From contig OZ242358.1 of NCBI GenBank assembly GCA_965208835.1, forward strand, positions 736,001-800,000: a DNA stretch of 64,000 nucleotides, in the 5' to 3' direction. The translations under genes were made by a program, and so were the position numbers. The DNA comes from Candidatus Latescibacterota bacterium (GTDB lineage: Bacteria > Latescibacterota > UBA2968 > GCA-2709665). Shown here one piece after another: positions 17,856 through 39,869 of this stretch. Below the pieces are notes generated by a model. It was not told the DNA's origin. It ran no database searches and saw only the letters and a list, made by a program, of their open reading frames with translations. Every line of letters starts with the position of its first letter. The first letter of the stretch is position 1.

Positions 17856-19976
17856 TTACCACCTGACGCGAAAACGTGTTGTGGATTCGGTCTCGGTGCC
17901 GGACAGCAAGTCCTCGACGACCACCCGGAACGTGCGCAGACCCGGCGACGTCCCGTCCATGTCCACCCGCAGATACCGGGGTTCCCAGTCGCGGACGCCC
18001 CGGTACGTGTAGGACACCGCCGTCGTCCACTCAGGCTCCGGGTCCTCCAGCCGCCGCTTCTCCGGGAGCACCTGCGTCTGATAGCCAATCCTGTAATGCG
18101 TAGCGCCGAAGGTGTCGCGCGCCAGGTTGTACACCTCGAAATAAAACCACGCGCTTCCATCGCGCGAGCACTCATGCAATGGGTTGGGCAGCACGATATA
18201 CCTGCCGCGTTCCACCGGCCATTCATCGCGTTCCACGATCCGGCGCGCCATCAGCAGGCTGCTGATCTCCAGCGAATCGGGGTTGAACCGCCTCGCCTCC
18301 AACGGTTCCCTGAACGTCCCCACCTTCTTGCTCGGCTGGTCCTCCGCCTCCCCGGCCAGGTAATAATCCCCGGGCTCAAGCGTCAACTGCTCGCTCGCAA
18401 TCAGGTATCCGCGTTTGGTCGAGGCGTAATACAGCCAGGGCATCCGCCGCACGCGGCCGACCTCCCGCCGGAGCGTATCCCAGACCGTGTCGAACAGGAA
18501 CAGCGCCTGGACCACGTCCACCTCCCGGACACCGGGACCAACCTCCTTATGCGTGACCTGATCACCGGAAAGCGCATAGTACACTTCCACGCTCGTCTTT
18601 CCGCCGTCGCGCCGGAACTGCGCGATCTGATACGGCACGCTGTACTGATAGGGATAGCGGTAGTAATCCGGGACCAACGCCACCAGTTCGCTGAAGTTCA
18701 GTGTCTGCCCACCCAGCTTCGACTCGCCGAACCGCCACGAGTCCCAGGAATTCGTATTCAGGAATGAAACCTCGAACCCGTCGTACGTCCATGTATCCTT
18801 TCGAGGGTGGAATTCGAATATTCCCCCGGACGGCCGCCGGTTCCGCCGCCTCATCTCCGCTTCTTCCTCAATGGTCTTTGTCAGGCCCAGATCGATGTCC
18901 GCGGGCGTCATGTGCCGAGCCACAGGGTCGCCGTATCGGATATAGGCCTGTCCCCGGTCGGTCTCCCATCCGGCGTACCCGTTGATGGGGTCGCCGAAAC
19001 GCAGATTCGCGAAAGCCACGCGCCTGCACTGCTCCAGCATCCGCTCGTTGATCTCGCTCAGATACAACGGGTCCTTCCCGAACCAGAATTTCCGGATCTC
19101 TTCCACGTCCGGCGGTGGTTCCTCGTTCTTCGACGATTTCTTGTCACGCATCAGAAAGACCGATTGCATGAAGCGGCGTTGCCGGTCGGATAAACGCGCC
19201 AGACCGTCCACGTAGGCGCGGTAGGCGGCTTCGGGGTCGTCCCTTTGCTGATAGCCGAGTCCCATGAAGAAGTAGGCGTCGGCACGGCCCGGATTGCGTT
19301 CGATATCGTCCTGAAACAGGGAAATAAGCGCATTCGGCTTTCGCGCCATATAGTATGCCAGCCCGAGATGCACGCGGGACGGCCAGTGGTCGGCGTCCAG
19401 CCACAGGGCGCGGTCCAGGTATTCAATCCCCGCGTCCACGTCCATATCCGCGTACCCGCGCTGCGCGAACGTGCGCCCGGTCGTCACGTCACCGTCCCCT
19501 GCCACCCGCATCGCGTCCCCTACGTCCTCACGCGTGAAGAACGTCATTTCCCACGACCAGACCACGAACCGTCCCGCCCAATAGTACGCGCGCACGTTCC
19601 TGGGGTCCAGCGCGATGGCCTCCCGCGCTTTCTTGTACGAGGCGGACCTCGGTCCGGTGCGCCAGAGCAGCTCCGCGAAGGTCGCCGTGTATTCCCCGTT
19701 TTCGGGTTCACGCCCCATCGCCCGCTTGAGGAGCGACCGCGCCTGCTGCCGCGAATACGTCGTGCCTTTTTCCAGTCGCAATCGCGCGAGCGCATGGAGG
19801 GCGCGTCCCGTGCGGTCGAGCTTTATCGCCTCCTTCAGGAGGTCCCTGCGTCCGTCCAACCCCAGCGAGGTGTCGGCGGATGCCTGAATCAGGGAGTCAA
19901 CCTTCGCGGGGACGGCACGCGCGGCCTGCGCCGGGGTCGTCAACAACAGCAGGCAATTCAGGATCAATGCAATCAT
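17856..19976 (-). CDS. GWxTD-domain protein with N-terminal TPRs (paralog 2)
   Basis: GGAG RBS, signal peptide MIALILNCLLLL; FWFGKDP..NERMLEQCRRVAFANLRF; GWETDRGQAYIRYGDP; closely similar to paralog 1. Confidence 0.88.
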   Translation of the reverse strand: MIALILNCLLLLTTPAQAARAVPAKVDSLIQASADTSLGLDGRRDLLKEAIKLDRTGRALHALARLRLEKGTTYSRQQARSLLKRAMGREPENGEYTATFAELLWRTGPRSASYKKAREAIALDPRNVRAYYWAGRFVVWSWEMTFFTREDVGDAMRVAGDGDVTTGRTFAQRGYADMDVDAGIEYLDRALWLDADHWPSRVHLGLAYYMARKPNALISLFQDDIERNPGRADAYFFMGLGYQQRDDPEAAYRAYVDGLARLSDRQRRFMQSVFLMRDKKSSKNEEPPPDVEEIRKFWFGKDPLYLSEINERMLEQCRRVAFANLRFGDPINGYAGWETDRGQAYIRYGDPVARHMTPADIDLGLTKTIEEEAEMRRRNRRPSGGIFEFHPRKDTWTYDGFEVSFLNTNSWDSWRFGESKLGGQTLNFSELVALVPDYYRYPYQYSVPYQIAQFRRDGGKTSVEVYYALSGDQVTHKEVGPGVREVDVVQALFLFDTVWDTLRREVGRVRRMPWLYYASTKRGYLIASEQLTLEPGDYYLAGEAEDQPSKKVGTFREPLEARRFNPDSLEISSLLMARRIVERDEWPVERGRYIVLPNPLHECSRDGSAWFYFEVYNLARDTFGATHYRIGYQTQVLPEKRRLEDPEPEWTTAVSYTYRGVRDWEPRYLRVDMDGTSPGLRTFRVVVEDLLSGTETESTTRFRVRW

Positions 19977-20035
19977 TCGGATCTCCGAAAACCCGGCGGG
20001 ATTTTCTGTTATGCTTCTCCGATAACCACAATCTG

Positions 20036-21148
20036 CTACGGCGCCTGAACGGTCTCGCGGGAGCGACTGTACCGTTCGACCGCCTCCATATCCAGCTCGC
20101 ATCCCAGCCCCGGCGCCATGGGGACCGGCGTGAATCCGTCGGCGAATTCTCTCGACTCGCGGATCAGGCTGTGCTTTCTCACCCAGCTTCCGACGATGTC
20201 CGACGCCATCGTGCAGTTAGGCACCACGGCCACCGCGTGTACGTAGGAGGCTTCCAGGATTCCAAGGTCCACTCCGGAACCGTGCCAGCAGCGCATCCCG
20301 GCGGCCTCTGCGACGGCGGCGCTTTTCACGAAGCCCATCATGCTCCCTCCCAGATTCACGCAGTCCACCACGCCGGCCTTCACCGCGCGGATGACGTCCG
20401 ACCCGCTTCCGAGGTGCATCGCAATCGGGATGCTGGTGGCCTCGTAAATTGCAGCGTAGCCGTCCAGGTCCGACTTCGGAATCGGGTCTTCGAACACTTC
20501 CACATTGCCCAGGGCCTCGAGTTCACGGGCGAGTTCAATCGTCTGCGCCGCCGTACGAAACCGCTCGTTGGGGTCCACCGTGACCTTGAATTCCGGGCCG
20601 GCCACGTCCCGGATGGCCCGCAGCCGTTCCACCATCGGTTCCTCGATCTTGCACTTGATCTTGATGCCCTTGAAACCGTGCTCGAGCGCCCGCGCGACGG
20701 TCCGCTTTCCGTCTTCTGGCGTCTGGGAGCCCATCCAGTAGTCCGCGCGCACCCGGTCGCGCACCGCACCACCCATGAGCGCGTGAACGGGAAGCCCGCG
20801 CGCACGGCCTATAAGGTCGAAAACCGCCGTCTCCAGGGCGTGATACGCGGGACCCGTTCCCACGTTCAGCATCGTCTCCGTACCGTCGCTTCGAGGCTCG
20901 TAAATATTCTGCAGCGTTACCGCCTCGGGGTCCCTGCCAAGCACCAGGGCGGCGCCCGCACGCACGTCCTCGACGGGCACGCCACGGCCGGACTCGCCCA
21001 GCCCGTAATGCTCGGTATCCGTGTTGATCCGGAGAATATGCTTGGGTACCACGTCCCATCCGACTTCCGGTACCCATTCGGGGCTGTTCACGCGACCCGG
21101 ACGACTCGGCACCACCACGGTCCACAGATCCATCGACGTCATTTTCAT
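20036..21148 (-). CDS. Mandelate racemase/muconate lactonizing enzyme family (enolase superfamily)
   Basis: GLGES, ALETAVFDLIGR..GLPVHALMGG, KIK motif, VDPNE, EDP, PGLGCELD. Confidence 0.88.
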   Translation of the reverse strand: MKMTSMDLWTVVVPSRPGRVNSPEWVPEVGWDVVPKHILRINTDTEHYGLGESGRGVPVEDVRAGAALVLGRDPEAVTLQNIYEPRSDGTETMLNVGTGPAYHALETAVFDLIGRARGLPVHALMGGAVRDRVRADYWMGSQTPEDGKRTVARALEHGFKGIKIKCKIEEPMVERLRAIRDVAGPEFKVTVDPNERFRTAAQTIELARELEALGNVEVFEDPIPKSDLDGYAAIYEATSIPIAMHLGSGSDVIRAVKAGVVDCVNLGGSMMGFVKSAAVAEAAGMRCWHGSGVDLGILEASYVHAVAVVPNCTMASDIVGSWVRKHSLIRESREFADGFTPVPMAPGLGCELDMEAVERYSRSRETVQAP

Positions 21149-21227: not shown

Positions 21228-21251
21228 CTAATACACACAGGAGAATTCTCA

Positions 21252-21644
21252 GTGCTGATCGCGATCGATCACCACAGCGGCGTGCCGGTCTACCGGCAGT
21301 TGATGGACCAGATCAAGTTTCATATCGCCAGCGGCCTGTTGAAGCCTGGAGAAAAGCTGCCGGCCACACGCACGCTCTCCGCACAACTTGGCGTCAACCC
21401 GATGACAGTGAGCAAGGCCTACGGGTATCTGGAGGCCGAGGGCATGGTGGAGCGGCGGCGCGGACGTCCGTTGACCGTGAGTTACCTGGAGCCGGAAATG
21501 GTCGAAGTCCACAAGCTCAACCGGCTCCGGCAGAGCCTCGCGCCCGTCGCGGCCATCGCTAGACAGCTTGGCATCGAAAAGTCCCGGGCCCTGGAAATCT
21601 TCGGCCGGATGATAGACGACGCCGGGAATCAGGAGGAGCCATAA
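21252..21644 (+). CDS. GntR family transcriptional regulator, YtrA subfamily
   Basis: AGGAGA RBS + GTG; PVYRQLMDQI..I..G.LKPGEKLP..R.LS..LGVNPMTVSKAY; short C-terminus; precedes an ABC ATPase. Confidence 0.92.
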   Translation: MLIAIDHHSGVPVYRQLMDQIKFHIASGLLKPGEKLPATRTLSAQLGVNPMTVSKAYGYLEAEGMVERRRGRPLTVSYLEPEMVEVHKLNRLRQSLAPVAAIARQLGIEKSRALEIFGRMIDDAGNQEEP

Positions 21645-21645
21645 T

Positions 21646-23858: not shown

Positions 23859-23894
23859 TCCGCGTTATTGCGCTTTATTAAAGGAGACCATTAC

Positions 23895-25397: not shown

Positions 25398-28300
25398 CTA
25401 AGGCAGCGCCTCGAATTCACTCCAGACCGCGCCTGCCTTTCCCTCCTCGAGGCTGGTGGCCGGCAGGAGGAAGAACAGCGCCTCGATCCGCTCCCCGGCC
25501 TTCATCCACCTGTCCAGGTTGCCCAGCAGGAAGCATCCGACCTCGCCCAGGGCGAACCCGGCGGCGCGCGCCCCCTCCCCGGCCGCGCTCAGGAACAACG
25601 CCTCTCCATTCTTCCCGACGATCCCTCCCCAGTTCCAATTGCCGCCGCTGGTCCAGTGGGGCGCCGCAAGCGTAGAGACTGACGCTTCGGTTGCGTTATA
25701 AAAGGTCGCGGTGCCGGGTGACGCGGCGAACGCGGGCCAGACGCCGAAGCCCAGATCCCCGTCGGCGCCGACCCCAAGATCGTCGCGGCAGGTCACGCGA
25801 ATGGCCAGAACGTCCGCGCCGGGCGCGAGCAGGTATTCCCACGCGATGGACTGTCCGCGGGCGTGCTCCTGTGCGATACGGCAGTGGACGCGCACCCCGC
25901 GCCAGACCAGGCCCTGGCGACCCTTCCTTTCGATCACCCGGTACCGGAACCGCTCCTTGTAGAGCGTATCCTCGAGCCGGTCGTATTCGGGCGAAACGCC
26001 GCCGTACCACGGATTCATCCAGGCACGGGGTTCAGCGTCGGGGTACGGACAGTTGAGATACTCCCTGCCGTCGCGCCTGAGAGAAATCACGGTTCCCATG
26101 AAAGGAGGCGCGACTTTCACGGTCAATATCCCGTTGTCGACCGCAATGATGCGGCCCTTTTCCTGTCGCGATACCGAAACCGCCCGCGCGTTGGCGGGCA
26201 GGACCAGCGCCTTCTCCGAAAACCGGTAGACCGCCTCCTCGGTCTCGAAACGAACACTGATGTCCTCGACGCCCGGCCGGACCCGCGCCGTGGAGCGAAA
26301 GGCCACCTTCCGGACAACCGGATCGGCTTCACGGAGCGCCGAAACATCGACGGCCTTAACGTCTGGGCGCAGACCGTCGGATGCCTCCAGTATGAGTTTG
26401 CCGTCGAGCTTGTGTCTTCCCACGTGATTGAGGCGCAGCGTCGCTTCCACGGGATCTCCCGCCACGACCAGCGGGCGCGGCTCCATACCGCACGCGATCG
26501 GCCTTCGCGTGGACGCTGCGGACGTTTCGACCTCCGGAACGCTGCCGAACAGGGTCCGCCACCAGGCCCGGACCGTCTGCCAGTTCCCGTCTCCGACAAT
26601 GGCGTTGACAGGGTCGAGCGATTGAGACTCTCCCGGCTTCACGCGGACGGCTCGCGTTCGAAGACTGCCCCACGGGCCGGGGCTCACCCGCTCGGCCCGG
26701 TCCCACAGAATGCCGGTGATACAGCCATCGTCTTTCTCCACGCAGAACCATCCTTCGGGCCAGGCCGACGCTTCTTCCGAAAGCCTGAGGTCGTCCAGGT
26801 CCCGTCCTCCCGAACCGAACGCCTGCCGGGACACCCCTGGCTTCCCCGGCACGACCAGGGACGCGGTGCGGCCCATTCGCATCCACCAGCTTTGCGACAC
26901 CGAAAGGTCCAGCGGCAGGGAACTTCCGTTGATTACGGTATCCAGCACCCTGACCAGCGGGCCCTGTCCAACCAGGACGCTTCTTTCCAGCAACACGCCC
27001 GGTCGAGTCACTGAAGGCGTGTGCAGGCGGAGTACGACCCCGGCGCCGTCCCGCTCGACCCGCGCCTCGGCCTTCTCCTGAAACAGATCGCCACCGGCAA
27101 AGGGCGGGCCGAGGCCCGGGGCCTGCAGCTTCAGCCGGCGGGACCTCAGCGCCCGGAGCGAGTGAAAGATGTATATCTCGCCGCTGCGCAAATCGGCGTT
27201 GACCATCAGTCCGCCGCCGCACAGCAGGGCGTTCCGCTCTCCGACACATCCCGACACGCCGCCCGGCTCAACGGCCAGCAGGTCGAGGCGCCTGGTCTTG
27301 ACAGGAATTCCCTCGCTGTCCACCACCGCGGTGGTCTGGACGTCAATCGCAACAGGCCCTGCCCGCGGGGCCGTTACCGGCACCGTCAGCTCGGCCCCGC
27401 CCTTCGGATCGAGCGTAACCTCCCGCTCGCCGGCGTTGACATCCACGCCGCCCACGGGCATGACCCGGAGTTTCGCAGTACACGCCTCGTCCAGGTTGGA
27501 ACGCAGGGTCAGCGTGGCTTGCTCCGGCTTGCCCGGCGGTAGGATGGAGCGGGGGGCATCGACCGAAACGTCCACGGCCTGGCGTACATCGATCCCCGCC
27601 GCGAGTTCGATCCCCACCCCGTCGATCACCAGGTCGGTCCGTAGAACCGCCGCTTTGGGTTCGCGCGACTTCTCCTGGATGTTGGGATCGATGACGAACG
27701 TGCCCTCGATTTCGGTGGTGTCCGCGACGTCCATCGCCTCGCGTTTTTCGACCTTGATCCCGAGATCGCCCGAGGCGGCGAGAAAGACGCGCGTCGGGTG
27801 CGGCTTCTTGTTGACGATACGCCAGCGGACAGCGTGGGGGACGCCCGAAACCAACTTCTCGTCGGGAAGGCTGCACGACACCGTCAGGTCGTTGTTCTCG
27901 AGCTCAATGATCCCCCAGCTCTGGCGGTCGAACACCAGCCTGAGCAGATCGCCGTCCGGGGCGCGCCAGAGGTATTCGTAAACCTTCACCCTGCCCCGCG
28001 TCATCACGTCCTCTTCGGCCTTGAGTTCGCGCACCTGGGTTTCGTACCAATCGTGCCTGGCAAAGAACGCGGCGGCGAGCGGGTGCCGGCGGGCGGCGGG
28101 CGTAAAATTCTCCATGTGCACGGACGAGTCCGGCCGCCACATGAAGCCCATCTTCTTGTACAGGGGAACCGCCTGCAGGTTCCCCGGCCACGTGTACAGG
28201 TCGACCCGCTGATAGCCCGTCTCGTACGCGCGTTCCAAAGCGCCCCACAGCGCCGATTTTCCGTGCTTCTTCCCGTGGTAATTCGGGTGGCAGTTGAGGT

Positions 28301-28553
28301 GCGGAATGAACGCCTGCGCCTTCTGTCCCGGCGTGGCTCTTATCGTGCACAGGCTGATAATGCGCTCTTCATTCTCCGTGACGATCGCCCCCAGCAGATT
28401 GCTCTCCCGGATTTTTCGCTCCTGCTCCTCGGCCGTGGTCTGCCATCCGCCGCCGCCCGGCCAGCCCACGTCCGCTTCCATCTCGAGCGTGGCGAGCTTC
28501 CGGGCGTCGCCTTCCCGCCAATCCTCGACGAGATTTCTGGTTTTGTGCAGCAA
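25398..28553 (-). CDS. Large GNAT-family N-acetyltransferase-domain protein (about 1050 aa)
   Basis: N-terminal GNAT motifs LNCHPNYHGKKHGK and DLYTWPGN..AVPLYKKMGF; beta-rich C-terminal domains; TTG start 5 nt after GGAGG (ORF open to 28565). Confidence 0.8.
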   Translation of the reverse strand: MLHKTRNLVEDWREGDARKLATLEMEADVGWPGGGGWQTTAEEQERKIRESNLLGAIVTENEERIISLCTIRATPGQKAQAFIPHLNCHPNYHGKKHGKSALWGALERAYETGYQRVDLYTWPGNLQAVPLYKKMGFMWRPDSSVHMENFTPAARRHPLAAAFFARHDWYETQVRELKAEEDVMTRGRVKVYEYLWRAPDGDLLRLVFDRQSWGIIELENNDLTVSCSLPDEKLVSGVPHAVRWRIVNKKPHPTRVFLAASGDLGIKVEKREAMDVADTTEIEGTFVIDPNIQEKSREPKAAVLRTDLVIDGVGIELAAGIDVRQAVDVSVDAPRSILPPGKPEQATLTLRSNLDEACTAKLRVMPVGGVDVNAGEREVTLDPKGGAELTVPVTAPRAGPVAIDVQTTAVVDSEGIPVKTRRLDLLAVEPGGVSGCVGERNALLCGGGLMVNADLRSGEIYIFHSLRALRSRRLKLQAPGLGPPFAGGDLFQEKAEARVERDGAGVVLRLHTPSVTRPGVLLERSVLVGQGPLVRVLDTVINGSSLPLDLSVSQSWWMRMGRTASLVVPGKPGVSRQAFGSGGRDLDDLRLSEEASAWPEGWFCVEKDDGCITGILWDRAERVSPGPWGSLRTRAVRVKPGESQSLDPVNAIVGDGNWQTVRAWWRTLFGSVPEVETSAASTRRPIACGMEPRPLVVAGDPVEATLRLNHVGRHKLDGKLILEASDGLRPDVKAVDVSALREADPVVRKVAFRSTARVRPGVEDISVRFETEEAVYRFSEKALVLPANARAVSVSRQEKGRIIAVDNGILTVKVAPPFMGTVISLRRDGREYLNCPYPDAEPRAWMNPWYGGVSPEYDRLEDTLYKERFRYRVIERKGRQGLVWRGVRVHCRIAQEHARGQSIAWEYLLAPGADVLAIRVTCRDDLGVGADGDLGFGVWPAFAASPGTATFYNATEASVSTLAAPHWTSGGNWNWGGIVGKNGEALFLSAAGEGARAAGFALGEVGCFLLGNLDRWMKAGERIEALFFLLPATSLEEGKAGAVWSEFEALP

Positions 28554-28622
28554 AGGCCCCTCCAACCCAATCAGATTTGAATATTATTGAATATAACTTC
28601 CGAAAAACACATGCGACGGAGT

Positions 28623-30998
28623 TCAACAGGCAGTCTGGCCGGTATACAGGTCCTTCACGGTAACGATGAGCTTGTGGAAACCGGCGGGGGCGTTTGTCGC
28701 GTCGATCTGCAGAAAGGTGAAGTCATTCTTCTGATTTCCCCGGTATTGCGCCGTGACCGTCGTCTCGGTGCCGTCTCGCGTGCGGGGGGTATCCTCGATC
28801 TCTTCGGAGATCCTGTTTCGTTCCGGCAGGATGTATTTGACGCGATAACTCACGGTTTCTTCAGCTTCATCCCGCCAGAGGTCTTCCATGCTCTCGATGA
28901 TCGCTTCCTCCACGATGGTCTGGATTTCCACCGCGGCGCCCGCGCCCGGGGCATCGGTGGCAGCGAACCGCTCAGGCCGGATTTCCTCGCGTTCCGGCCG
29001 GGTCAGCCGGTAGGAAATCCGGTTTTTGGTCCCGCCGAACCGGTCTTTTTTCAGATTGTATATCTCCAGGTAGATAAACACCGGCTCGGACCTGCCGTAG
29101 GTATGTATGGGATTCGGCGTGACGCGAAGGTCCTCGCGACCCTCGGGAAACGCCGTTTTTGGCTGGATCCCGGACGCCAGCAGCAGATCGCTCATGGCCA
29201 GTGACGAATCCGCTGCGTCAAATGTCCGGTATTCGCGAAACGTACCGATAGAACCAGTGCCGCGGTCCCGGACCTCGACGACGAGCCGGTGCTGTCGAGG
29301 AGCGACCCGCAAAGTCCGATAGGACGCGACGTGGCTGCGCCGCAGGCTGTCGCTCTTTGAATCAACCGCCTCGTCGAAAACCGGCCATTGCATTGCGACG
29401 TCCATTTTCCTTCGGTAGACCTGGTCCCATTGTTCGTCGAACAGAAACACGCCATCCTCGAGATCCACAAATCCGTTCGGTTCGGATAAACGGACCCTAT
29501 CCTTTGGAATCGCGTAGGCGAATTCAACGCGAATACTGTCGCGCTCCTGAAAGGCCGCGACCTGGTGGGGCATCTGATATTTCTTTTCGCGATACGGATC
29601 GATATATCGCTGCGGCGTGTCTCGATATATATGCCTGGCAGGAGGCACATGGAGTTCCTGTAGCGTTCTTTGCTTCCGCCGTGCGTAGTGATCTCCCAGA
29701 TCCGGTCTCCATTGTGTGATGTAATACCTATCCCTATCGTCTATTACTTCCAAACTCACAGTCTGTTGTCTCGTACTCCGCCCCGGTGGGTCCGTCCCCA
29801 ACGCAAACCGCCATCCGTCCAACCGGTCGTCGCTCGCGAAAGAGATACTGAAGTCCTCATAGAGCCACGTGTTTTTCCAACCCGTGGAACCTCGGTAGAT
29901 ACGCCGTTTAAGATGGGGACCAAACTTGATGAATGCCTTGCCCTGATCGGTCTGCCATCCGGCAATTTCCTTGAAGGGTCGGCTGAACCTGTGGTTGGCG
30001 TATGCAACCCTGCCGCAATGCTCCATCTTTCTCTCGTTGAACGCCGTCAGAAACAGCGGATCATGGCTGCGCCAGAAACGGCCACGTCCGCCGTTCGTTC
30101 GATCCTCGACGCCGGTGTCACCGTACCGAACCGCCCGCGCCATCCGTGTCCGTTCCTCTTCCGAAGCGACCATCTCCACCGACTCCATTCGGGACCGCTC
30201 CTCAGCGGTCATTCGCTCAAGCGCTCGCTTGTAGTAGCTGTGCGCGACGTCCATTTCACCCAATATCTGATAACCCAGGCCACAGAACAGAAGCGCGTCC
30301 TTGTCCTCCGGCGCCCGATCCAGAAGACGCTTGAAGAGCAGGATCATCGCTTCCGGGTGCCCGATCTCAACGTGAAGGAGACCGAGCAGGTTATACGTGC
30401 CTCGAAACCCTGGGTTCGCGTCAATTCCGCGTTGAAAGTGGGCCTTTGCCTGATCGAGATCCCGCGCGGCAAGATGGTTCCATTTGTCGCTATCGATGTA
30501 GGACAGATACTCCTGCACCGCGAAATATCCTGCCCAGTATGCCGCCTCCGCGGTCTCCGGCTCAGCGTGCAGCAGTTTTTCATAGTGACGCACGGCATGC
30601 CACCAGAACCCCTGCCTGCTGAGCAGTTCGCCCAACGTCAAATGATAGTCTTTATTCTCCGGGTCGAGGCGCATGGCCTCATCAAGCGCTTTGCGGGCGC
30701 TCTGGCGGGTGAGCGGCGTGTTCAATTCCATATAAAGCTTTGCGATCTCATAGAGCGCGGGCGCGAATTTCCAGTTTAGCTTCAAGACCTGCTCGAACGC
30801 CCTGATACTCGCCTCTGGAGGCACTTTGCCGACCTGCGCCAGCGCCTCGCGATACAGCGAATCCCGTCGCGCGTCGTTTGGACCGGCGCGCACGTCGGCT
30901 GTCGCGAGAAGCACCACTGCCATGACGACCAGACCGGACATCAGCCTGACCGGCCGACGGGATGTGGCAGAACTCAAAACGCCCATTTGTAATACCAT
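28623..30998 (-). CDS. GWxTD-domain protein with TPRs (paralog 3); C-terminus possibly truncated
   Basis: Signal peptide; TPRs; FWRSHDP..NERKMEHCGRVAYANHRF; GWQTDQGKAFIKFGP; YLEIYNL. Exact start uncertain. Confidence 0.82.
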   Translation of the reverse strand: MVLQMGVLSSATSRRPVRLMSGLVVMAVVLLATADVRAGPNDARRDSLYREALAQVGKVPPEASIRAFEQVLKLNWKFAPALYEIAKLYMELNTPLTRQSARKALDEAMRLDPENKDYHLTLGELLSRQGFWWHAVRHYEKLLHAEPETAEAAYWAGYFAVQEYLSYIDSDKWNHLAARDLDQAKAHFQRGIDANPGFRGTYNLLGLLHVEIGHPEAMILLFKRLLDRAPEDKDALLFCGLGYQILGEMDVAHSYYKRALERMTAEERSRMESVEMVASEEERTRMARAVRYGDTGVEDRTNGGRGRFWRSHDPLFLTAFNERKMEHCGRVAYANHRFSRPFKEIAGWQTDQGKAFIKFGPHLKRRIYRGSTGWKNTWLYEDFSISFASDDRLDGWRFALGTDPPGRSTRQQTVSLEVIDDRDRYYITQWRPDLGDHYARRKQRTLQELHVPPARHIYRDTPQRYIDPYREKKYQMPHQVAAFQERDSIRVEFAYAIPKDRVRLSEPNGFVDLEDGVFLFDEQWDQVYRRKMDVAMQWPVFDEAVDSKSDSLRRSHVASYRTLRVAPRQHRLVVEVRDRGTGSIGTFREYRTFDAADSSLAMSDLLLASGIQPKTAFPEGREDLRVTPNPIHTYGRSEPVFIYLEIYNLKKDRFGGTKNRISYRLTRPEREEIRPERFAATDAPGAGAAVEIQTIVEEAIIESMEDLWRDEAEETVSYRVKYILPERNRISEEIEDTPRTRDGTETTVTAQYRGNQKNDFTFLQIDATNAPAGFHKLIVTVKDLYTGQTAC

Positions 30999-31047
30999 CC
31001 AGTGACATGCAGCGCCATCAGGCGCGTGCGTACGGCCGCTGTCTCCG

Positions 31048-33381
31048 TCACTTCAACACGAACCCGGCATCCTTGGTCACGGTCTCACCACTGTTCAAAT
31101 CCGTGACGGCCACCTGCAGCACCTGCCGTCCCTCGCTATGCTGCCCGAGCTGCAACGCGACGTATTCCACCTCAGTGGAGTCAGTACCGACCTGCTCGGA
31201 TGCCACCTCGACCTCCACCTGCCGGTTTCCCCGCAGCCTCACAAGCCGTGCGATATTGCTGACGTTGGAATTCCCCTTTTCGCCCACGGTATAGGCGACG
31301 CGATATCTTGTCCGTCCGAACGTATCCTTCGTCAGATTATAGATTTCGTAATATACATTGACGCTGTGGCCCTTTCCGTACGTCCGGGTCGGCATTGGCA
31401 CAACGTGCAGGTCTCCCTTGCTGAACTTGCCGACCGCGTTGTCCTCAGTGATCCGCCAGGCCAGTTCCAGATCGCTCATCCGGAGACCGGTCTCAGGGTA
31501 GGCTTCTACCTGGATCATCTGGCGGTACCGCCCGCGCCTGCCGGTGCGTTTGTCCCTGGCCTCCACTTCCATCCTGTAGTGGCCCGGCGGAACGTCCAGC
31601 CGAACCAGGTCCGGAACAAATGCGCCTTCCTGCTGGGTCACGTCTCCGTGGCGCCGGAACAGTACGTCCCCACTCTCGCGGTAAACCTGACCTGTTTCCT
31701 TGTTCAATACGGCGACTGTCCTTTCGACGTCCAGGAACGTCGCGTCCTCAGCCTCCAGGTACTGCGCTGCCTGATGTGGAATCCCTGCATAGATTTCCAG
31801 TGCGGATGCCGTGTCAGCCTGCCCTCGGAAATCCGCCAGATCGTAGTAGAACTCCAGGGGATCTTCGTTCGCTGGCGGCTGGTAGTAGTCGGGGTATCGC
31901 GCCGCCGTTCGCATGCTCACGTTCCGGGGACTCAACCGGTTGAACGCGGCCAGCTTTCGGATGTCAATATCCACGTCGACCGGTGGCGGTGCGAAATCAA
32001 AGTTCCCGTTCAACATCTCATCCGTAAACGTCACCTCCATGCCGCCCCCCACGCCGTTGTTTACGTAGACCCAGCTTTCCCACGGGACCGTCGAGGTATC
32101 CATTTCATTGGCAAGCACGGGCCTGTAGGCGGGCGCCGTGAAGCCATCAAGGTCTTGCGGTCCTCGGATACTGCGAACCGGAAAAGCAACCAGGATGTCT
32201 CCCCAGTTCGCAACCTCCGCCGCACCGTGGATCTGCATTGCAAGCGCCTCCTTAACCCTGTGTACATCCACGCTCTGCTGGAAATCCTTCCAGTCCGATC
32301 TCGATCGATGGTCCGGCTCTCCGAATCTCACGTATACCTCTCCCCGCGTATCCCAGGGCTGCTGCGATTTGGAAAAATGCCGTCGCGCGAACGACACGCG
32401 CCGGTAATGCTCCAGCCGCCGCTCGTTCGCCGCAGTTGTCAGATCCGGGTCCCGGTCTCCCCAGAACCGGGTCAGAGACGCGTCTTTATCCGGCGCCTGG
32501 GCAAAAGCCTTGTATTCATCAGCAGAAGCAAGGAGGCGGATATCCTCATACAGCATCCGTTCTGCCGGTTCACAGGCTTCGAAATATCTCTCGAACGCGA
32601 CCTCCGCCAGGTCCAGGGAATCCAGTTCCATGTAGGCGTACGCGAGTACGGGCAACAGCCTGATCGCGTCGGGATGGTTCAGCATCTGCGTGCGCATCAG
32701 GTCCACAACGCGAGCGTGGTCGCCGGCTTTACCAAGCGCTCCGGCCAGGAGCAGAGTGACGTCCAGATCTTCGGGCCGGAGAGAGAGGTATTGTTCGTAG
32801 TGCTCCGCCGCGCGCAGATGATCTTCCTTGAATGTCCCGTACCATTCACCGAGCAGCCGGTGCGCAGGTGCAAACGTTGCATCCATTTGGAGGAGCTTTT
32901 CCGCTTCGCGCTTTACATCGTGTTCCCCCAATGCGTACCTCGCCTCGGCGATATGATAACGCGCTTCCAGGTAGTGCCGGTCGTATTGCAGTGCCTTCTT
33001 GAAGTAGTCGATCGCCGTGTACAGGCCCTTGGGTTTTTCTCGCCACACCAACCCGAGTCCGTTGTACGCCGGAGCGTATTTGTGCTGCCTACTCCGCGCA
33101 TCCCCAAATGCCCGTTCGGCGGCTTTCAAATCCCCATCCTTCAAATACACGTGGCCCAAACCCACGTGCGAAGGCGCATGTTTCCTGTCGATCTCGATTG
33201 CCGCGCGGAATCTTGACGCTGCCGCGTCCAGGCTGTCGCTGTCGAGCAGGTTCATACCCTCGCTGTAGAGGTTCTTAACCAACGCCCGATCCTCAGTGGA
33301 CATCGTCGTCGCTCCGGCCTCCGCATTGAAGAACGTCACCGCGGCAATCGCCAGAACATTCATAACCGCTCCTGGTCTCAT
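31048..33381 (-). CDS. GWxTD-domain protein with TPRs (paralog 4)
   Basis: GGAGG RBS; signal peptide; multiple TPRs; FWGDRDPD.TT..NERRLEHYRRV; variant PWDTRGEVYVRFGEP; YYEIYNL. Confidence 0.87.
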   Translation of the reverse strand: MRPGAVMNVLAIAAVTFFNAEAGATTMSTEDRALVKNLYSEGMNLLDSDSLDAAASRFRAAIEIDRKHAPSHVGLGHVYLKDGDLKAAERAFGDARSRQHKYAPAYNGLGLVWREKPKGLYTAIDYFKKALQYDRHYLEARYHIAEARYALGEHDVKREAEKLLQMDATFAPAHRLLGEWYGTFKEDHLRAAEHYEQYLSLRPEDLDVTLLLAGALGKAGDHARVVDLMRTQMLNHPDAIRLLPVLAYAYMELDSLDLAEVAFERYFEACEPAERMLYEDIRLLASADEYKAFAQAPDKDASLTRFWGDRDPDLTTAANERRLEHYRRVSFARRHFSKSQQPWDTRGEVYVRFGEPDHRSRSDWKDFQQSVDVHRVKEALAMQIHGAAEVANWGDILVAFPVRSIRGPQDLDGFTAPAYRPVLANEMDTSTVPWESWVYVNNGVGGGMEVTFTDEMLNGNFDFAPPPVDVDIDIRKLAAFNRLSPRNVSMRTAARYPDYYQPPANEDPLEFYYDLADFRGQADTASALEIYAGIPHQAAQYLEAEDATFLDVERTVAVLNKETGQVYRESGDVLFRRHGDVTQQEGAFVPDLVRLDVPPGHYRMEVEARDKRTGRRGRYRQMIQVEAYPETGLRMSDLELAWRITEDNAVGKFSKGDLHVVPMPTRTYGKGHSVNVYYEIYNLTKDTFGRTRYRVAYTVGEKGNSNVSNIARLVRLRGNRQVEVEVASEQVGTDSTEVEYVALQLGQHSEGRQVLQVAVTDLNSGETVTKDAGFVLK

Positions 33382-33439
33382 TTTGGACCTCCACGAGATA
33401 AACAGTTCTTGCGGTAATCTGGAGCTGTTTCAGGTGCTC

Positions 33440-36400
33440 CTATTCCAATACCAGTTCCACCGACCGCTCACGCTCGGTGCCCGCGTGGATATCGCGGACC
33501 TTTACCTTCAGCAGAAACTCGCCAGAGCCGGCTTTGTTCAGGTCCAGCGCCAGTGACTCCCTTGTATCCGGCGTGTCGCCGATGCGCTCGACCGTGACGG
33601 TCGTGGCGGGCTTTTCGCCGCTGCCGAAGATTCTGAGCAGCCGCCGGATGCCCTGCCGTTTCAGCCGGGTCAACCCGTAGGAGACCTCGAACGACGTCGT
33701 GCCGCGTTCGTCCGGCGTCAGATTGTAAAGCTCGAAATAGATGTACACGGGATCCCTGCGAGAGAACCTGAGCGAGGGATTCGGTACGGCCTGGATTCCT
33801 CGAAGATTGAACCCGTGGGATCCCTCGACGTCGGCCCGGATCACGTGCGCCGGCACGACGCTGCTCATATCCAGTTCGGTCTCCGAGAATTCAGGTATTC
33901 GCATGTCCTGCTTCCAGCCGCCAAGGAGGTTGTCCCGTGAGGGTCTGAGGAAAAACGCCGCGTGCCCTGAATCGGGGTCGGCGGAAAACCGGAGTACGCC
34001 GAAGCTCCGGTCTTCGTAGCGCGACCGTTCGACATGGGATTTACGCACGTAGCCGGTCAGGTTCTCGTACCGGTTCCACTGCATGTCATGCAGCGCAAGG
34101 CCGTATTGGTAGACCGCAGCCGTATCGGGCAATTGACGAAAGTCCTTCTTCAATTCCTTGAATGGCATTCCGTAATAAAGCTCAATGTCGCCCCTGCCGC
34201 GTTCGCCCTTGAAATACGCCAGGTAGGACTCGTAATCGAGGTCATCCACGTCGTCTTCCCAGGTATGGCGGTCTGTCTGGAGCGCCGTCTCCACGGACCG
34301 GCGCACTTCGCGCCTGAGTTTCTCATTCTCCCACCGAAGGCGTCGTCCATAGTTTCCCGAACCGGACAGGGACTCCACAAGACGCCAGTTGGAACCCATA
34401 CTGCTGGGTGTTGCGGCGAAATTGAATAACATCTTGTCAAATGCATCCGTCTTCCAGTAGTGCCAGACTTCGGCCATGGAGAACTTCTGCGTATCTGACG
34501 GTCGGCCGTGACGAATGTATATCAGACCCGGATCGTTGAACCTGTCGTTCAATTCGACCGTAGTCGGGTACGGGATGTCATCGCCCTGGTCCGGATCGTA
34601 GAACCAGGTCCGAAATCCATCGTAAATGTAGTACCGTTCGGCATACAAAATCCGCCGGTAGTGCTCCCCCAGCCGCACGTTGGGAGACACGGCAGGGGTG
34701 GGGTCCCTGCTCGCCCAGAACTTCCGGAAGAACTCCCGATAGGCCTCCGGCGTTTCGAGTTTGGAAAACGCATCCATTTCCTCTACGGTTACGATGTATT
34801 TCACGTCTTCGTACATCAGTTGCGCGTCCAGAGAGTCCCGGATGTTTTCAACCGCCTTGCTGTAATGCCGCTCTCCGGTCTCGAAGGCCTCGCTTCCGTA
34901 AGCGATGCGCGCCAGTGAAAGATAGGCCGGTATTACGCTCAAAGAAGGATCAGACGAAAGCCATGACCGCAGAACCGTATCCGCGCGCGCCGACTGCCCG
35001 GCGAGCCGCAGGGCCTCGCCCTCGAAGTAACGCGCGTATTCGGTACCATGTCTGCGTAACCACTTCAGCGCGTCGTTCGGATCCGTATTGTCCAGGAAAT
35101 ACAGGTACAGACGCCGCAGCCCGCGCCGGTGTATGAATTCATCCGGCTTGATCCGGACCTGATTTTCGCCCAGCCGAATCGCCTTTACGAACGCCTTGTC
35201 ATAACGTTTGAGTACTGCAAACTGATAGAGCACGTCACGGTAATGCGGCGCTTTGTTAACGAGTTGGCTGAATATCCGTTCCGATCGCCTCCAGTCCAGC
35301 CAGCGCGGGACCGTCCCCTTGTGTTTGCCGGATTCCCGGTAGGCGATAGCCCGCCGGTAGAGCGCCTCCAGATTGCCCGGATCGCGCGTCAGGATCTGCC
35401 CCGACCACTTCTTGAGGTCGCTCCAATCCTCCGCCTGCATCGCCGCGTCGCTGAGCGCTTTTAACGCCGCTGGAGACCCTGGCGACCGCTTCAGCGCCTT
35501 CTTCAGGAAATATTCCGCGTCTTCCCGGGCGCCCTGCCCCATATAAGCCCTTCCCAACCCCACAAAGGAAGGCGCGTACCCGTCGTTTTCGGAGATGGCA
35601 TCTTCGAATCGCTGCTTCGCTTCGGCGAAATTGCCGGCGGCCAGCAGACCGACTCCCTGGTTGAATGCGGCCGGTCCCCTGGGGTCGGTTACCAGCGCAG
35701 CGGGCGGCGCAGTGCGTCTGGTGACACCTCGCCGGGAAGATCCCGGTTCGCGCATTGCCGGCACAGGCAGCGCACCGCGTTGCGCCCAGTATCCCTCAAA
35801 TCCCGTTGTCCGCTGGAAAGCCGCGGTCCGCTTCCGTGGCGCGGCCTTCAGGCGCTCCAGCAGCATGCCGCTGTCGACGAGATGGACCACCTGGACGCCT
35901 TCCATGTCCCGAATCGCCACGGGCTCCGCTCGATCCAGCAACAGCCGTTCGGGGCGCGGCACCATCGTGGAAGGAAAGACCACCATCCCGCGCGCGGGCG
36001 GGTCATCCGTGGTGGACCCCGGCGGCGCGTGTACCCCGGTGGGATCCGATACCCAAACCACGGTTATCGCACCGGATATGCCCCCTCCATGGGCTTCATC
36101 GAGTCCCTCAACCGCGGCAGCGACGGCCTCGGCGCTGTGAACGGAAACATCCGCCTTTACATCCGCCGCCTCGTCCAGTGCGTTCTCGTCCGGCATGGCC
36201 TCCTTCGTGAAACCGGAGAACGCGGGAACGTACACCACGCGAATGGTATCGGCGTCCCAGACGTCCGCCGCCAGCTGTCCCCGGGTGCGATTCACGATCA
36301 GGATGTTGGGCGTCGCCGAAGCCGGCATGAACAGGCGCACAGGGTCGCTCCACAGCCCGGACAGGTCCTCATCCTGCGCAACGCGGTTCATAAAGCCCAT

Positions 36401-36772
36401 CAGATTCAGGCTCACACGCGCGTCAATGCGGCGCATCCGGATGTCGGCCAGCAGCAATCGGGTCTCGTCGGCGCCGACCGAGCCCGCCTCCAACGCAAGA
36501 TTCATCGCGTCGACGTCCCGCTTGAGCTCCAAGAGCGACTTGCGGTTCTGGATTCGCAGGTCCTTGAGCATCTCCCGGAAGTCGCCCGGGGTGGACGGTG
36601 TCTCCGGCACGGATCCCACCGTTGAAACAGGCCGTCTTCCGTCCCACTTCAGATGGATGCTGTCCGCCGGTCCCTGCGCTCCCTGAACCTGCACTTCCAC
36701 CGTATCCCCGCGGGCTGAATGCACAAATGCCAATAAAGCAAAGCCCAGGACGACTGAAATCATATGTCGCAT
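33440..36772 (-). CDS. GWxTD-domain protein with long N-terminal extension and TPRs (paralog 5)
   Basis: Signal peptide MRHMISVVLG; TPRs; FWASRDPTP..N.RLGEHYRRILYA; variant FNDPGLIYIRHGRP; YFELYNL. Confidence 0.82.
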   Translation of the reverse strand: MRHMISVVLGFALLAFVHSARGDTVEVQVQGAQGPADSIHLKWDGRRPVSTVGSVPETPSTPGDFREMLKDLRIQNRKSLLELKRDVDAMNLALEAGSVGADETRLLLADIRMRRIDARVSLNLMGFMNRVAQDEDLSGLWSDPVRLFMPASATPNILIVNRTRGQLAADVWDADTIRVVYVPAFSGFTKEAMPDENALDEAADVKADVSVHSAEAVAAAVEGLDEAHGGGISGAITVVWVSDPTGVHAPPGSTTDDPPARGMVVFPSTMVPRPERLLLDRAEPVAIRDMEGVQVVHLVDSGMLLERLKAAPRKRTAAFQRTTGFEGYWAQRGALPVPAMREPGSSRRGVTRRTAPPAALVTDPRGPAAFNQGVGLLAAGNFAEAKQRFEDAISENDGYAPSFVGLGRAYMGQGAREDAEYFLKKALKRSPGSPAALKALSDAAMQAEDWSDLKKWSGQILTRDPGNLEALYRRAIAYRESGKHKGTVPRWLDWRRSERIFSQLVNKAPHYRDVLYQFAVLKRYDKAFVKAIRLGENQVRIKPDEFIHRRGLRRLYLYFLDNTDPNDALKWLRRHGTEYARYFEGEALRLAGQSARADTVLRSWLSSDPSLSVIPAYLSLARIAYGSEAFETGERHYSKAVENIRDSLDAQLMYEDVKYIVTVEEMDAFSKLETPEAYREFFRKFWASRDPTPAVSPNVRLGEHYRRILYAERYYIYDGFRTWFYDPDQGDDIPYPTTVELNDRFNDPGLIYIRHGRPSDTQKFSMAEVWHYWKTDAFDKMLFNFAATPSSMGSNWRLVESLSGSGNYGRRLRWENEKLRREVRRSVETALQTDRHTWEDDVDDLDYESYLAYFKGERGRGDIELYYGMPFKELKKDFRQLPDTAAVYQYGLALHDMQWNRYENLTGYVRKSHVERSRYEDRSFGVLRFSADPDSGHAAFFLRPSRDNLLGGWKQDMRIPEFSETELDMSSVVPAHVIRADVEGSHGFNLRGIQAVPNPSLRFSRRDPVYIYFELYNLTPDERGTTSFEVSYGLTRLKRQGIRRLLRIFGSGEKPATTVTVERIGDTPDTRESLALDLNKAGSGEFLLKVKVRDIHAGTERERSVELVLE

Positions 36773-36777
36773 AGCCG

Positions 36778-37251
36778 CTATCTCCACTGTTGCTCCAGTT
36801 CGGCTTCCATATCCAGGATTGATGCCCGGATCTGCGCCAGTTCTTTACGCACCGGCGCAGATTCCCCATTCCCCGCCGGCACGTCCGTTTCATACACCTC
36901 CATTCCCCAGACCGCAAGCATCAGCACCGCTGCTACCGCCGCCGGCGCGAGTACGCCGCGGGGAACCCTCTCGATGAGGTCTTGCAGGCGCCAACGGACG
37001 CGCCCCGGCCGGGCTTCCAACCGTTCCGACAGACCATCCCAGAAGCCGGCTGGCGCCGTCTCGTTCGCGACGGACGCATTGAAATGGCTCCGGACCGCGT
37101 CCTCGCTTCGCCGCAGCCGCTCGAATGCAGCCGCGCAGTCCCCGCACCGAGCAAGGTGAACACGCATGGCCTCTTCCCGGTCCGGCGACAAATCGCCGTC
37201 CAGATAGCCATGCATCAGCTTCTTCGTTTCACGACATTCCAGATTCGGCAT
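36778..37251 (-). CDS. Zinc-finger (zf-HC2/ZAS) transmembrane anti-sigma factor
   Basis: C...YLDGDL...HLARCGDC (HxxxCxxC); single TM helix; directly downstream of the ECF sigma gene. Confidence 0.9.
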   Translation of the reverse strand: MPNLECRETKKLMHGYLDGDLSPDREEAMRVHLARCGDCAAAFERLRRSEDAVRSHFNASVANETAPAGFWDGLSERLEARPGRVRWRLQDLIERVPRGVLAPAAVAAVLMLAVWGMEVYETDVPAGNGESAPVRKELAQIRASILDMEAELEQQWR

Positions 37252-37275
37252 GTTTTCTGCCCTCTTTCGTTGCGG

Positions 37276-37836
37276 TCAATCCAGCAGACCATGTCTCTCG
37301 ATCTCTTTCTGCAGTTTTTCCCGCGCACGGTGCAGCCGGGATTTGACCGTGCCTTCAGGGATGTTCAGGATTATAGCGATTTCGCTGCCGGCAAGTTCCT
37401 GCAGATAGGACAACACCACAACCTCGTGGAGCTTTCCCGGCAGCCGGTCGATTATCGCCCTCAGGCGGACCTTCACGTCTTGTCTTGCGAACCGGGTGTC
37501 CGGCGATTCTGTCGCGGCCGAAGCCTGGCCGCCGAACCAGGCGGGCGGCGTCAGGCGCTCAAACAAACGTCGTCGCCGTCGCCTGCGCACGTTCAGGGCG
37601 GTCCGAACCGCAATACGGTACATCCATGCCTGAAACGGAACCTTCCCCGAAAACGAACCCAGCCCGCGGTAAGCGCGTACAAATGCATCCTGGGCCGCTT
37701 CCTCCGCCTCCTCACGGTTGCCCAGGATTGAAAGCGCAACCCGGAAGACGAAGTCCTGGTGCGGTTCGATCAACCTCCGGAACGCTTCCTGATTTCCCGA
37801 GAGACACTGCTGAATCAGGAACCGTTCCGTGGGCAT
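37276..37836 (-). CDS. ECF (sigma-70 family) RNA polymerase sigma factor
   Basis: Region 2 (EEAEEAAQDAFVRAY, FQAWMYRIAV) and region 4 (EIAIILNIPEGTVKSRLHRAR); start MPTERF inferred. Confidence 0.93.
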   Translation of the reverse strand: MPTERFLIQQCLSGNQEAFRRLIEPHQDFVFRVALSILGNREEAEEAAQDAFVRAYRGLGSFSGKVPFQAWMYRIAVRTALNVRRRRRRRLFERLTPPAWFGGQASAATESPDTRFARQDVKVRLRAIIDRLPGKLHEVVVLSYLQELAGSEIAIILNIPEGTVKSRLHRAREKLQKEIERHGLLD

Positions 37837-38032
37837 GCGGGACTCCGGCGTATTGGCGCGCTGAGGAATCGGTATCGTAAACTGCCTTTTAAGATCGACG
37901 GATAACACTTCATTACCCAAAAACGTAGTGTTCTGACCCGGAAACGGGTTGACTGAAATCGGCGGTATATCGGCGAGGAATTATTGCGACACGACTCCGG
38001 ACACGCGATGTGTTCCCTGTCTCACATCCTGC

Positions 38033-38060
38033 AAGACACGCCTTCCGTCTAAACGGTTCA
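38033..38060 (-). promoter_or_regulatory. Putative autoregulatory ECF promoter TGAACC-N17-GTCTT
   Basis: Minus strand reads TGAACC gtttagacggaaggcgt GTCTT about 200 nt upstream of the sigma start; same architecture as 17780..17807. Confidence 0.45.
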
Positions 38061-38174
38061 TTATAAATTCGCCAGATCACTGGAAAAAGCAACAGTTATT
38101 GCCAGAAAAAAAAGAATGGATGTGCCAATCCTGGGCGTCACGCGCCCGCCCGCTGCTCGCCGCAGAATAATCCC

Positions 38175-38203
38175 TTGACGCGTATATGCCATGTCCGTAC
38201 TTT
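38175..38203 (+). promoter_or_regulatory. Sigma70-like promoter TTGACG-17-TACTTT
   Basis: Near-consensus hexamers with a 17-nt spacer, about 70 nt upstream of the PhyH-HEAT start. Confidence 0.5.
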
Positions 38204-38273
38204 TTCGATTGTTGAGGCGCAAGAAAGCGAACACGCCCTGCCCCTGCTCACCATCTATACGGAGACTTGTGCT

Positions 38274-39644: not shown

Positions 39645-39714
39645 ATATGATCCCAGTCGGGAAATCATATACGCGTTGCGAGGCTGCCTTTCTCGAATGG
39701 AGACTTGAATCCGT

Positions 39715-39838
39715 TAGACGCAAGACGGGAGAGGGGAGAGATTGTCTGCCTTGTTAGGCTTCTTCTCGTGCCGGAGACAAGGGAAAATAACATAACGGGC
39801 AAGGATTTCTTCTACCGTCTAACGTCTCCCGTCTACCC
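39715..39838 (+). repeat. Intergenic repeat family R1 (about 125 bp, heptamer-rich inverted ends), copy A
   Basis: Reverse complement aligns with 57932..58044 and 59321..59447 (shared core AGAAGAAATCCTTGCCCG...ACAAGGCAG..AATCTCTCCC). Confidence 0.85.
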
Positions 39839-39869
39839 ACTTACCGGGTGGTGTGTACGCGAGGTGTTT

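Follow-up and report, generated by a model that had tools for sequence, protein, structure and literature searches.

Within a 64,000-nt stretch of a Candidatus Latescibacterota genome (the window; bases 736001–800000 of a single-contig genome of 5.18 Mb), a gene for an extracytoplasmic function (ECF) sigma factor is followed by genes for a zinc-binding anti-sigma (ZAS) factor of the zf-HC2 type and for three exported proteins with tetratricopeptide repeats (TPR) and a GWxTD domain, here called GW1115, GW777 and GW791. We show that the order of the first three genes is kept throughout the genus, and that a motif with the appearance of an ECF promoter, conserved upstream of the sigma gene, recurs with marked specificity upstream of further GWxTD genes in the same genome. 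The best reading of these data, and one that we regard as probable, is that of an autoregulated ECF sigma factor with a regulon of GWxTD genes.

Gene content and synteny of the sigma–GWxTD locus

As had been described in an earlier reading of the window (the sequence-only reading), the five genes lie tightly packed and co-oriented on the minus strand, with gaps of 24, 5, 58 and 49 nt in the order sigma, anti-sigma, GW1115, GW777 and GW791 (Table 1; gene calls outside the window, 3709 genes, are our own). The start first listed for the GW1115 open reading frame (ORF) is a GTG at 36787, and it is the ATG start that gives the 1110 residues used here. Leaders of the signal-peptidase-I type, read by eye, are present on all three GWxTD proteins. 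A simple scan of the gaps found no terminator-like or sigma-70-like site, the putative operon contains no sigma-54-type site with the correct spacing, and no Rfam family matches within the window, the 5′ leader of the sigma gene included. The co-oriented gene for a protein with a GNAT domain, 57 nt 3′ of GW791, may be the last gene of the operon; a homolog follows the GWxTD genes at 12/12 same-genus loci with a long enough contig, being reduced or split at two of these loci.

The sigma factor consists of regions Sigma70_r2 (PF04542, E 9e-18) and Sigma70_r4_2 (PF08281, E 6e-16), no other sigma region being found, and scores 104.7 bits against the ECF superfamily model TIGR02937 (cut-off 42.9). 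It falls below the equivalog cut-offs of the PRK11922 (130.3 against 209 bits), SigW (120.5 against 243.1) and RpoE (105.9 against 236.15) models, and so belongs to neither the SigW (TIGR02948/NF007223) nor the RpoE (TIGR02939) equivalog. The start ATG at 37836 and the GGAG that precedes it are kept in 15 species. The cognate zf-HC2 gene accompanies the sigma gene in 14/14 same-genus genomes, and its product matches PF13490 with 43.5 bits (cut-off 22.2).

Two further GWxTD genes on the same strand, also seen in the sequence-only reading, bring the number of copies to five within 22 kb, which is not a chance arrangement (about 0.14 copies would be expected from 32 in 5.18 Mb); two other stretches of this genome, of about 19 and 25 kb, likewise hold five copies each. 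With 32 GWxTD, 19 Sigma70_r2 and three zf-HC2 matches in the genome, it is only in the cluster described here that GWxTD genes (3/32) adjoin a sigma gene.

The order sigma, anti-sigma, GW1115 is kept in 14/14 same-genus genomes, as is, within the genus, the 5-nt gap between the latter two, and the two GWxTD genes that come after GW1115 differ in order and number. Outside the genus a single ortholog of GW1115 was found (48% identity), in genome G021, where it stands in the syntenic place with neither sigma nor anti-sigma beside it; there, a 78-aa truncated receiver ORF (L072:5156-5392; PF00072, profile positions 12–63 of 111) ends 1 nt before the ortholog. The window sigma reaches at most 39% identity to any match in five genomes from other genera, and the weak sigma/anti-sigma matches in other genera were rejected as orthologs since they belong with another sigma pair of this genome, at 3.677 Mb. 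Among 74 loci of GW777 relatives (in genomes mostly of Candidatus Latescibacterota and some of Gemmatimonadota), ten have a sigma-like gene within 7 kb, each of these being the orthologous locus, and 64 have none. Adjacency by itself is a genus-level trait; the sequence-only reading had named beforehand a lack of conserved adjacency in relatives as what would speak against its interpretation, and the adjacency held inside the genus and was missing from G021, from those 64 GW777-subfamily loci and from the rest of the genome.

These absences, with the truncated receiver ORF in place of the sigma and anti-sigma genes in G021, are what one would expect if the adjacency were a genus-specific accident in which a sigma/anti-sigma pair came to sit before a GWxTD gene already there, the GWxTD genes being functionally unrelated passengers served by read-through or by promoters of their own. 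The flanking genes are syntenic as well, so conservation within the genus says little here. We nevertheless consider such an accident very unlikely, since the motif described below links the sigma to five other GWxTD loci independently of adjacency, the 5-nt coupling and a near-invariant anti-sigma tail argue for co-function, and no internal promoter is predicted in the operon.

Table 1. Features of the window, with positions numbered from its first base
Feature	Coordinates	Strand	Remarks
ECF (group 4) sigma-70 factor, 186 aa	37276..37836	-	Sigma70_r2 and r4_2 only; TIGR02937 above cut-off
ZAS (zf-HC2) anti-sigma, 157 aa, one transmembrane stretch	36778..37251	-	PF13490 E 3e-11
GW1115, TPR-GWxTD, 1110 aa from ATG	33440..36772	-	Signal peptide, N-domain (about 23–372), TPR, GWxTD core, C-terminal beta region
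GW777, TPR-GWxTD, 777 aa	31048..33381	-	Signal peptide, TPR arm, GWxTD core, two beta-sandwich domains; TIGR04514 61.5 bits
GW791, TPR-GWxTD, 791 aa	28623..30998	-	Signal peptide, TPR, GWxTD with diverged second core half, C-terminal beta region; TIGR04514 47.6 bits
1055-aa protein, N-terminal GNAT domain	25398..28565	-	PF00583 E 7e-11; remainder without assignment
GWxTD paralog, 748-aa ORF, probable start 19976	17856..20102	-	TIGR04514 48.0 bits; not placed behind the sigma promoter; no motif upstream
GWxTD paralog, 681 aa	15638..17683	-	TIGR04514 62.1 bits; one-mismatch motif site at -123 only
DUF6785/DUF6784 polytopic membrane protein	13565..15544	+	Pfam E 6e-108; recurrent GWxTD neighbour; syntenic in G021
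Predicted ECF-type autoregulatory promoter	38027..38071, core 38035-38059	-	Blocks invariant or nearly so in 15 species

A predicted promoter motif upstream of the sigma gene and of distant GWxTD genes

Alignment of the region upstream of the sigma gene from 15 species delineates a series of conserved blocks set in diverged flanks, namely a T-rich stretch, then TGAACC and GTGTCTTGCAGG, the latter two 15 nt apart with a spacer that varies. These blocks have the predicted anatomy of an ECF promoter, with TGAACC as the -35-like and GTGTCTT as the -10-like element, and a conserved TGAACC-N15-GTGTCTT site upstream of the sigma gene would fit autoregulation. The window contains no second ECF-type site, and within it motif scores above 7 occur only at the sigma site.

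Two further conserved elements stand near this promoter. About 25–45 nt upstream of the -35-like element (38084-38102, minus strand), 15 species share a block GCAAT-AAC-TGTTGC with Ts behind it, which could be an operator or a UP-like element; it was rejected as a sigma-54 promoter, the GG-to-GC spacing being one base too long and the TGG occurring in this genome only. In the 5′ leader of the sigma gene (37895-37918, minus strand), all 15 species have a block GGGTAA..AAGTGTTATCCG; in this genome, as in one relative, an insertion of about 73 nt also lengthens the leader.

To the two core blocks and their spacing alone (GAACC-N15-GTGTC), the genome has 12 exact matches, seven of them outside gene calls: the sigma's own site, five sites upstream of GWxTD genes (g152, g2847, g3115, g3119 and g3688, at distances of 36–216 nt) and one orphan. 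With 13 other spacings (9–14 and 16–22) there were 6–17 matches each in the genome and none upstream of a GWxTD gene, and a simple binomial gives 2.8e-10 for the chance that at least five of the six non-self sites come to lie at 32 of 3709 genes. A looser pattern occurs upstream of 5/32 GWxTD genes as against 38/3677 other genes, and when GTGTCT is demanded each of the five matches in the genome is either the sigma site or a GWxTD site, with 0 for the reversed control pattern. Common to the sites are a T-rich stretch ahead of the motif and a TT that follows GTGTC, whereas the spacers vary. A position weight matrix (PWM) built from 31 sites of relatives, which is descriptive only because the training loci were partly picked for holding GWxTD genes, places the sigma site and four GWxTD sites in the top five genome positions on both strands (42.4 for the sigma site, the genome maximum, then 37.4, 34.5, 30.0 and 20.1; the next, at 18.2, is inside a gene). 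A weaker PWM site lies upstream of g1084, the gene directly before the GWxTD gene g1085. None of the other sigma genes of this genome has the motif.

In three complete same-genus genomes (G008, G009 and G010), 50 of 51 pattern matches were examined. Fourteen of these are upstream of GWxTD homologs (5, 5 and 4, respectively), two upstream of the sigma ortholog and two upstream of proteins of the SLBB/Tcp10_C/CAP type, and the other 32 are mostly inside genes; the remaining G010 match agrees with the aligned sigma locus (L049). Four other genera of the same family, in which there is no close sigma ortholog (at most 39% identity), have 1, 1, 3 and 3 matches against 2, 1, 0 and 1 for controls, and in two sister-family genomes the pattern is at control level. 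Across genera, the predicted motif tracks the sigma factor. As to the SLBB/Tcp10_C/CAP type, in two relatives an ECF-type motif stands before proteins whose best match among the genes of this genome is g2181 (31–36% identity), the type of g2181 being judged by eye; further, SLBB/Tcp10_C/CAP or Tcp10_C-only proteins (778 and 761 aa) adjoin GWxTD genes in this genome at 1618352-1623019 and 3927732-3932632 (L004, L013).

The sequence-only reading had put forward the GWxTD proteins as effectors of this ECF sigma. That proposal gains in silico support which extends beyond the operon, from the five other genes and the 14 homologs in three relatives, together with the lack of a predicted promoter or terminator inside the operon; nothing was found in favour of the quality-control role that it had also suggested for them. 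For its further suggestions, of a sensing partner and of a hetero-oligomeric assembly, there are indirect hints in the anti-sigma tail, in the close coupling to GW1115 with its N-domain and in the recurring clusters of unlike GWxTD subfamilies.

The anti-sigma tail, GW1115 and the GWxTD family

The anti-sigma has, by topology read from its sequence and in agreement with what the sequence-only reading described, a single hydrophobic stretch (about residues 99–118) and a tail of about 38 residues. Within this tail, residues 132–157 are invariant at 21 of 26 positions, as opposed to 40 of 131 in the rest of the protein; 12 of the 17 variable tail codons show synonymous changes only, and among the 35 variable codons in the stretch of 38 that precedes the tail, 29 alter the residue. 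Unexpectedly, the most conserved part of the anti-sigma is its short tail outside the membrane.

The zinc-ligand set C6, H32, C36 and C39 (C-x25-H-x3-C-x2-C) is invariant in 15/15 anti-sigma orthologs. This set, whose spacing we take to equal that of RsrA, raises the alternative that the signal is cytoplasmic and that the anti-sigma uses its zinc site as an RsrA-type redox/thiol sensor, the tail and GW1115 having no part in sensing. The anti-sigma does weakly match the RsrA equivalog (E 9e-9), but at 35.4 bits it stays below the cut-off of 62.5; the ligands for a putative zinc-binding or redox-sensing function are present in the sequence. RsrA-type sensors are soluble, whereas this anti-sigma has a membrane stretch and is most conserved beyond it, and we consider an RsrA-type sensor quite unlikely.

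GW1115 is the most divergent of the 32 paralogs, on a long branch and with its best paralog only 24% identical. Its N-domain of about 350 residues has no paralog in the genome; in a collection of 5.8 billion proteins it matched only proteins of the same architecture at 68% identity or more (15 and one partial match), and it is found in one other genus at 42%. Considering the near-invariant tail, the 5-nt translational coupling and the lineage-specific N-domain together, we weakly infer that GW1115 is the most likely periplasmic partner of the anti-sigma tail. No Pfam match to FecR, STN, Plug or a TonB-dependent barrel was found in the anti-sigma or GW1115 at E 0.01 or better, and the system is accordingly not placed among FecI/FecR/TonB-dependent transducers.

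The five GWxTD proteins of the window all pass TIGR04514 (47.6–62.1 bits, cut-off 28); two of the five pass PF20094 (34.0 and 37.7 bits, cut-off 26.9), two are below it (25.2 and 18.4) and one is not listed. A phmmer search returned 2775 cluster representatives with an E value of at most 1e-10, of which 294 reached 1e-30 or better, and genomes of this bacterial order have 8–39 copies. That the GWxTD domain has no assigned function, as the sequence-only reading stated, agrees with a full-text literature search that turned up no paper on the family; a like search found no relevant paper on sigma factors of Latescibacteria. The proteins contain the motifs FW-x2-RDP, NER-x2-EH-x-RR and (G/P)W-x(T/D)-x-RG, and residues D, W, R, E, H, R, R and G of the core do not vary, whereas no cysteine is conserved.

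In a maximum-likelihood tree of the 32 paralogs, the three operon genes fall in three different clades, and each of the two other five-gene clusters holds members of the same clades. Such mixed-clade clusters fit sets of unlike subunits or steps, an assembly not being proven thereby. The closest paralogs of GW777 (41–47% identical) are encoded at other genomic loci, the two other five-gene clusters accounting for two of them, and GW791 is sister to g3688 (61% identity), the motif-bearing head gene of the cluster at 5.12–5.15 Mb. Beside each of the two other five-gene clusters, an IS1595-family transposase is paired with a DNA methylase (219733-222239 and 5118826-5121332; L001, L019); Pfam scores and lengths are identical between the pairs, which may have been copied to the cluster edges recently as mobile elements.

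The AlphaFold2 model of GW777 (predicted local distance difference test, pLDDT, 90.9 and predicted template-modelling score, pTM, 0.85 for the whole protein; 91.7 and 0.86 for residues 270–777) comprises a TPR superhelix (about 29–270), an alpha/beta GWxTD core (about 270–510) and two beta-sandwich domains. The sandwiches resemble the Ig-like domains of GH2 (Z 11.4) and the carbohydrate-binding domain of Wzt (Z 9.6), and RbmA of Vibrio cholerae is the best Foldseek match (E 1e-8). The C-terminal domain pair can also be placed on MG4-MG5 of C5 (Z 9.5, 201 residues aligned, root mean square deviation (rmsd) 4.1), on alpha-2-macroglobulin (Z 9.3, 192 aligned, rmsd 3.3) and on C3b (Z 9.2, 192 aligned, rmsd 4.7). 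These middling Z values are typical of common Ig/FnIII-like folds, and identity is 9–15%; on the model, the likeness is one of shared fold only and lends no support to shared function. It also extends to two domains only, with no Pfam match to an alpha-2-macroglobulin or complement family. Structure searches of the GW777 models were dominated by the TPR arm and the beta-sandwiches, so that they are not informative on the fold of the core. Against PDB sequences, the core profile by itself reached no match better than E = 1 and a full-length profile matched TPR proteins only, and an Atlas search gave no usable match for the core or for the GW1115 N-domain. A transglutaminase-like core was considered and rejected, the factor XIII and protein 4.2 alignments having an rmsd of 14–17 and the family having no conserved cysteine. 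As modelled, GWxTD proteins are apparently non-enzymatic exported TPR/beta-sandwich proteins.

The genes that stand repeatedly beside GWxTD genes in this genome encode FGE-sulfatase-like (7), Kelch (5) and DUF6785/6784 membrane proteins (4), and at three other loci paralogs of the DUF6785/6784 protein of the window are no more than four genes away from GWxTD genes. Three of the 32 GWxTD genes adjoin a set made up of a small barrel, a CarboxypepD_reg/Plug receptor, an unknown protein of about 800 aa and a PorV-like barrel, which would suit the idea that the regulated GWxTD proteins are accessories of TonB-dependent uptake modules, with an ECF pair resembling the regulators of polysaccharide-utilization loci. 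We judge this rather unlikely: neither the sigma operon nor any motif-bearing GWxTD gene adjoins such a receptor set, the neighbours of the latter being Kelch, FGE-sulfatase-like and SLBB/Tcp10_C/CAP proteins, and FecR, STN and Plug matches are missing from the anti-sigma and GW1115 as stated above.

Elsewhere in the window, genes for a GntR regulator, an ABC ATPase and two paralogous multi-pass membrane proteins (443 and 497 aa) without a Pfam family (21249-25361, plus strand) converge on the GNAT-domain gene, the copy number of the membrane proteins differing among species. On the other side, tandem paralogs with a right-handed beta-helix region (39705-41003 and 41070-42209, plus strand) stand just past a divergent PhyH/HEAT-repeat gene (38175-39644).

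A predicted regulator for the GWxTD family

We propose that the sigma, the anti-sigma, the three TPR-GWxTD genes and possibly the GNAT gene would form one operon, transcribed together and headed by an ECF/ZAS switch. The membrane anti-sigma would keep the sigma bound and be removed on an envelope signal; once free, the sigma would read its own promoter (T-rich stretch, TGAACC, 15 nt, GTGTCTT) and the same type of promoter before at least five other GWxTD genes or clusters, so that the system may serve as a dedicated regulator of an expanded exported family. Conservatively, the predicted regulon directly covers eight GWxTD genes, i.e. the three of the operon and the five with sites of their own. 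It would comprise 16–17 of the 32 if the clusters headed by g152 and g3688 and the pair g1084–g1085 are each co-transcribed, which is uncertain because gaps in the g152 and g3688 clusters reach 319 and 799 nt.

Several observations weigh against this proposal. Assignment of the motif to this sigma assumes autoregulation, which is usual for ECF sigmas, and the genome has nine other ECF-like genes. In two sister-family genomes a non-orthologous ECF gene has a T-rich/GAACC-N15-GTGTC site and no GWxTD link, the gene after it encoding a non-GWxTD protein of about 1030 aa, and in G021, which yielded no close sigma ortholog, one motif match lies upstream of a GWxTD gene. Some of the GWxTD promoter spacers are alike, so that part of the sharing of sites may come from duplication of whole clusters and not from independent sites. 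The g3688 cluster, which encodes the same protein family as the operon of the window, appears to have control of the sigma-54 type: its neighbour is a large kinase/AAA/GAF enhancer-binding protein, and the sequence suggests dual control through tandem promoters. With regard to GW1115, the last seven or so tail codons of the anti-sigma are invariant as DNA too, probably because the ribosome-binding site of the next gene lies there, and the G021 ortholog retains the N-domain with no adjacent anti-sigma, which weakens the idea that this domain exists to bind the tail.

The region upstream of g3688 (5146828-5147465; L020) has a good -24/-12 element of the sigma-54 type, TGGTAC-N5-TTGCA, at -373, preceded by two copies of a palindrome containing TGTATACA, and an ECF-type site 133 nt further downstream, at -240.

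The nine other ECF-like genes, the sister-family site and the G021 site would also be expected if the sigma controlled its own operon only and the other GWxTD sites were read by a different ECF sigma or by several overlapping ones. We think this unlikely, given that in the genome the motif is found at this sigma gene and at no other sigma gene, and that its enrichment was seen only in the genus having this sigma.

In its parts the switch is of a known type. SigW–RsiW of Bacillus and RpoE–RseA of Escherichia coli, in which regulated proteolysis frees the sigma, also pair a two-domain sigma with a zf-HC2 anti-sigma having one membrane stretch, and have an AAC-containing -35 element in the autoregulatory promoter (here predicted). 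The PRK11922, SigW and RpoE models are the best NCBIfam matches of our sigma, yet its scores lie far below their equivalog cut-offs. Other differences are that the outer part of the anti-sigma has only about 38 residues and there is no RseB-like gene, and that the predicted regulon consists of one paralogous family and not of a general envelope-repair set. FecI–FecR–FecA and the ECF/anti-sigma/SusC-like transducers of Bacteroidota are systems of cell-surface signalling. In these, as here, one exported paralog with an extra N-terminal domain adjoins the sigma/anti-sigma pair, and unextended paralogs are found elsewhere under the same type of promoter; the difference is that no FecR, STN, Plug or TonB-dependent barrel was detected and that the putative partner is a soluble TPR-GWxTD protein.

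We suggest, as a doubtful but specific possibility, that the GW1115 N-domain binds the anti-sigma tail and that the state of the exported GWxTD assemblies (ligand load, assembly or damage) may thereby feed back on transcription at six or seven loci, which hold 8–17 of the 32 GWxTD genes. If true, this would be cell-surface signalling through a soluble TPR-GWxTD protein in place of a TonB-dependent transducer, and a first functional handle on the GWxTD family.

Finally, as to what the regulon would mean more generally, the novelty lies not in the switch but in the predicted dedicated regulator, which is the first for the GWxTD family, and in the prediction of an ECF promoter and its regulon in a phylum for which every listed record is a metagenome-assembled genome. 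Such a regulator would make an anonymous family a testable regulon, for which the sigma, the anti-sigma and the 25-nt promoter core are experimentally tractable, and would allow one to ask what the inducing signal is, which members are expressed together and whether the repeatedly clustered subfamilies cooperate.

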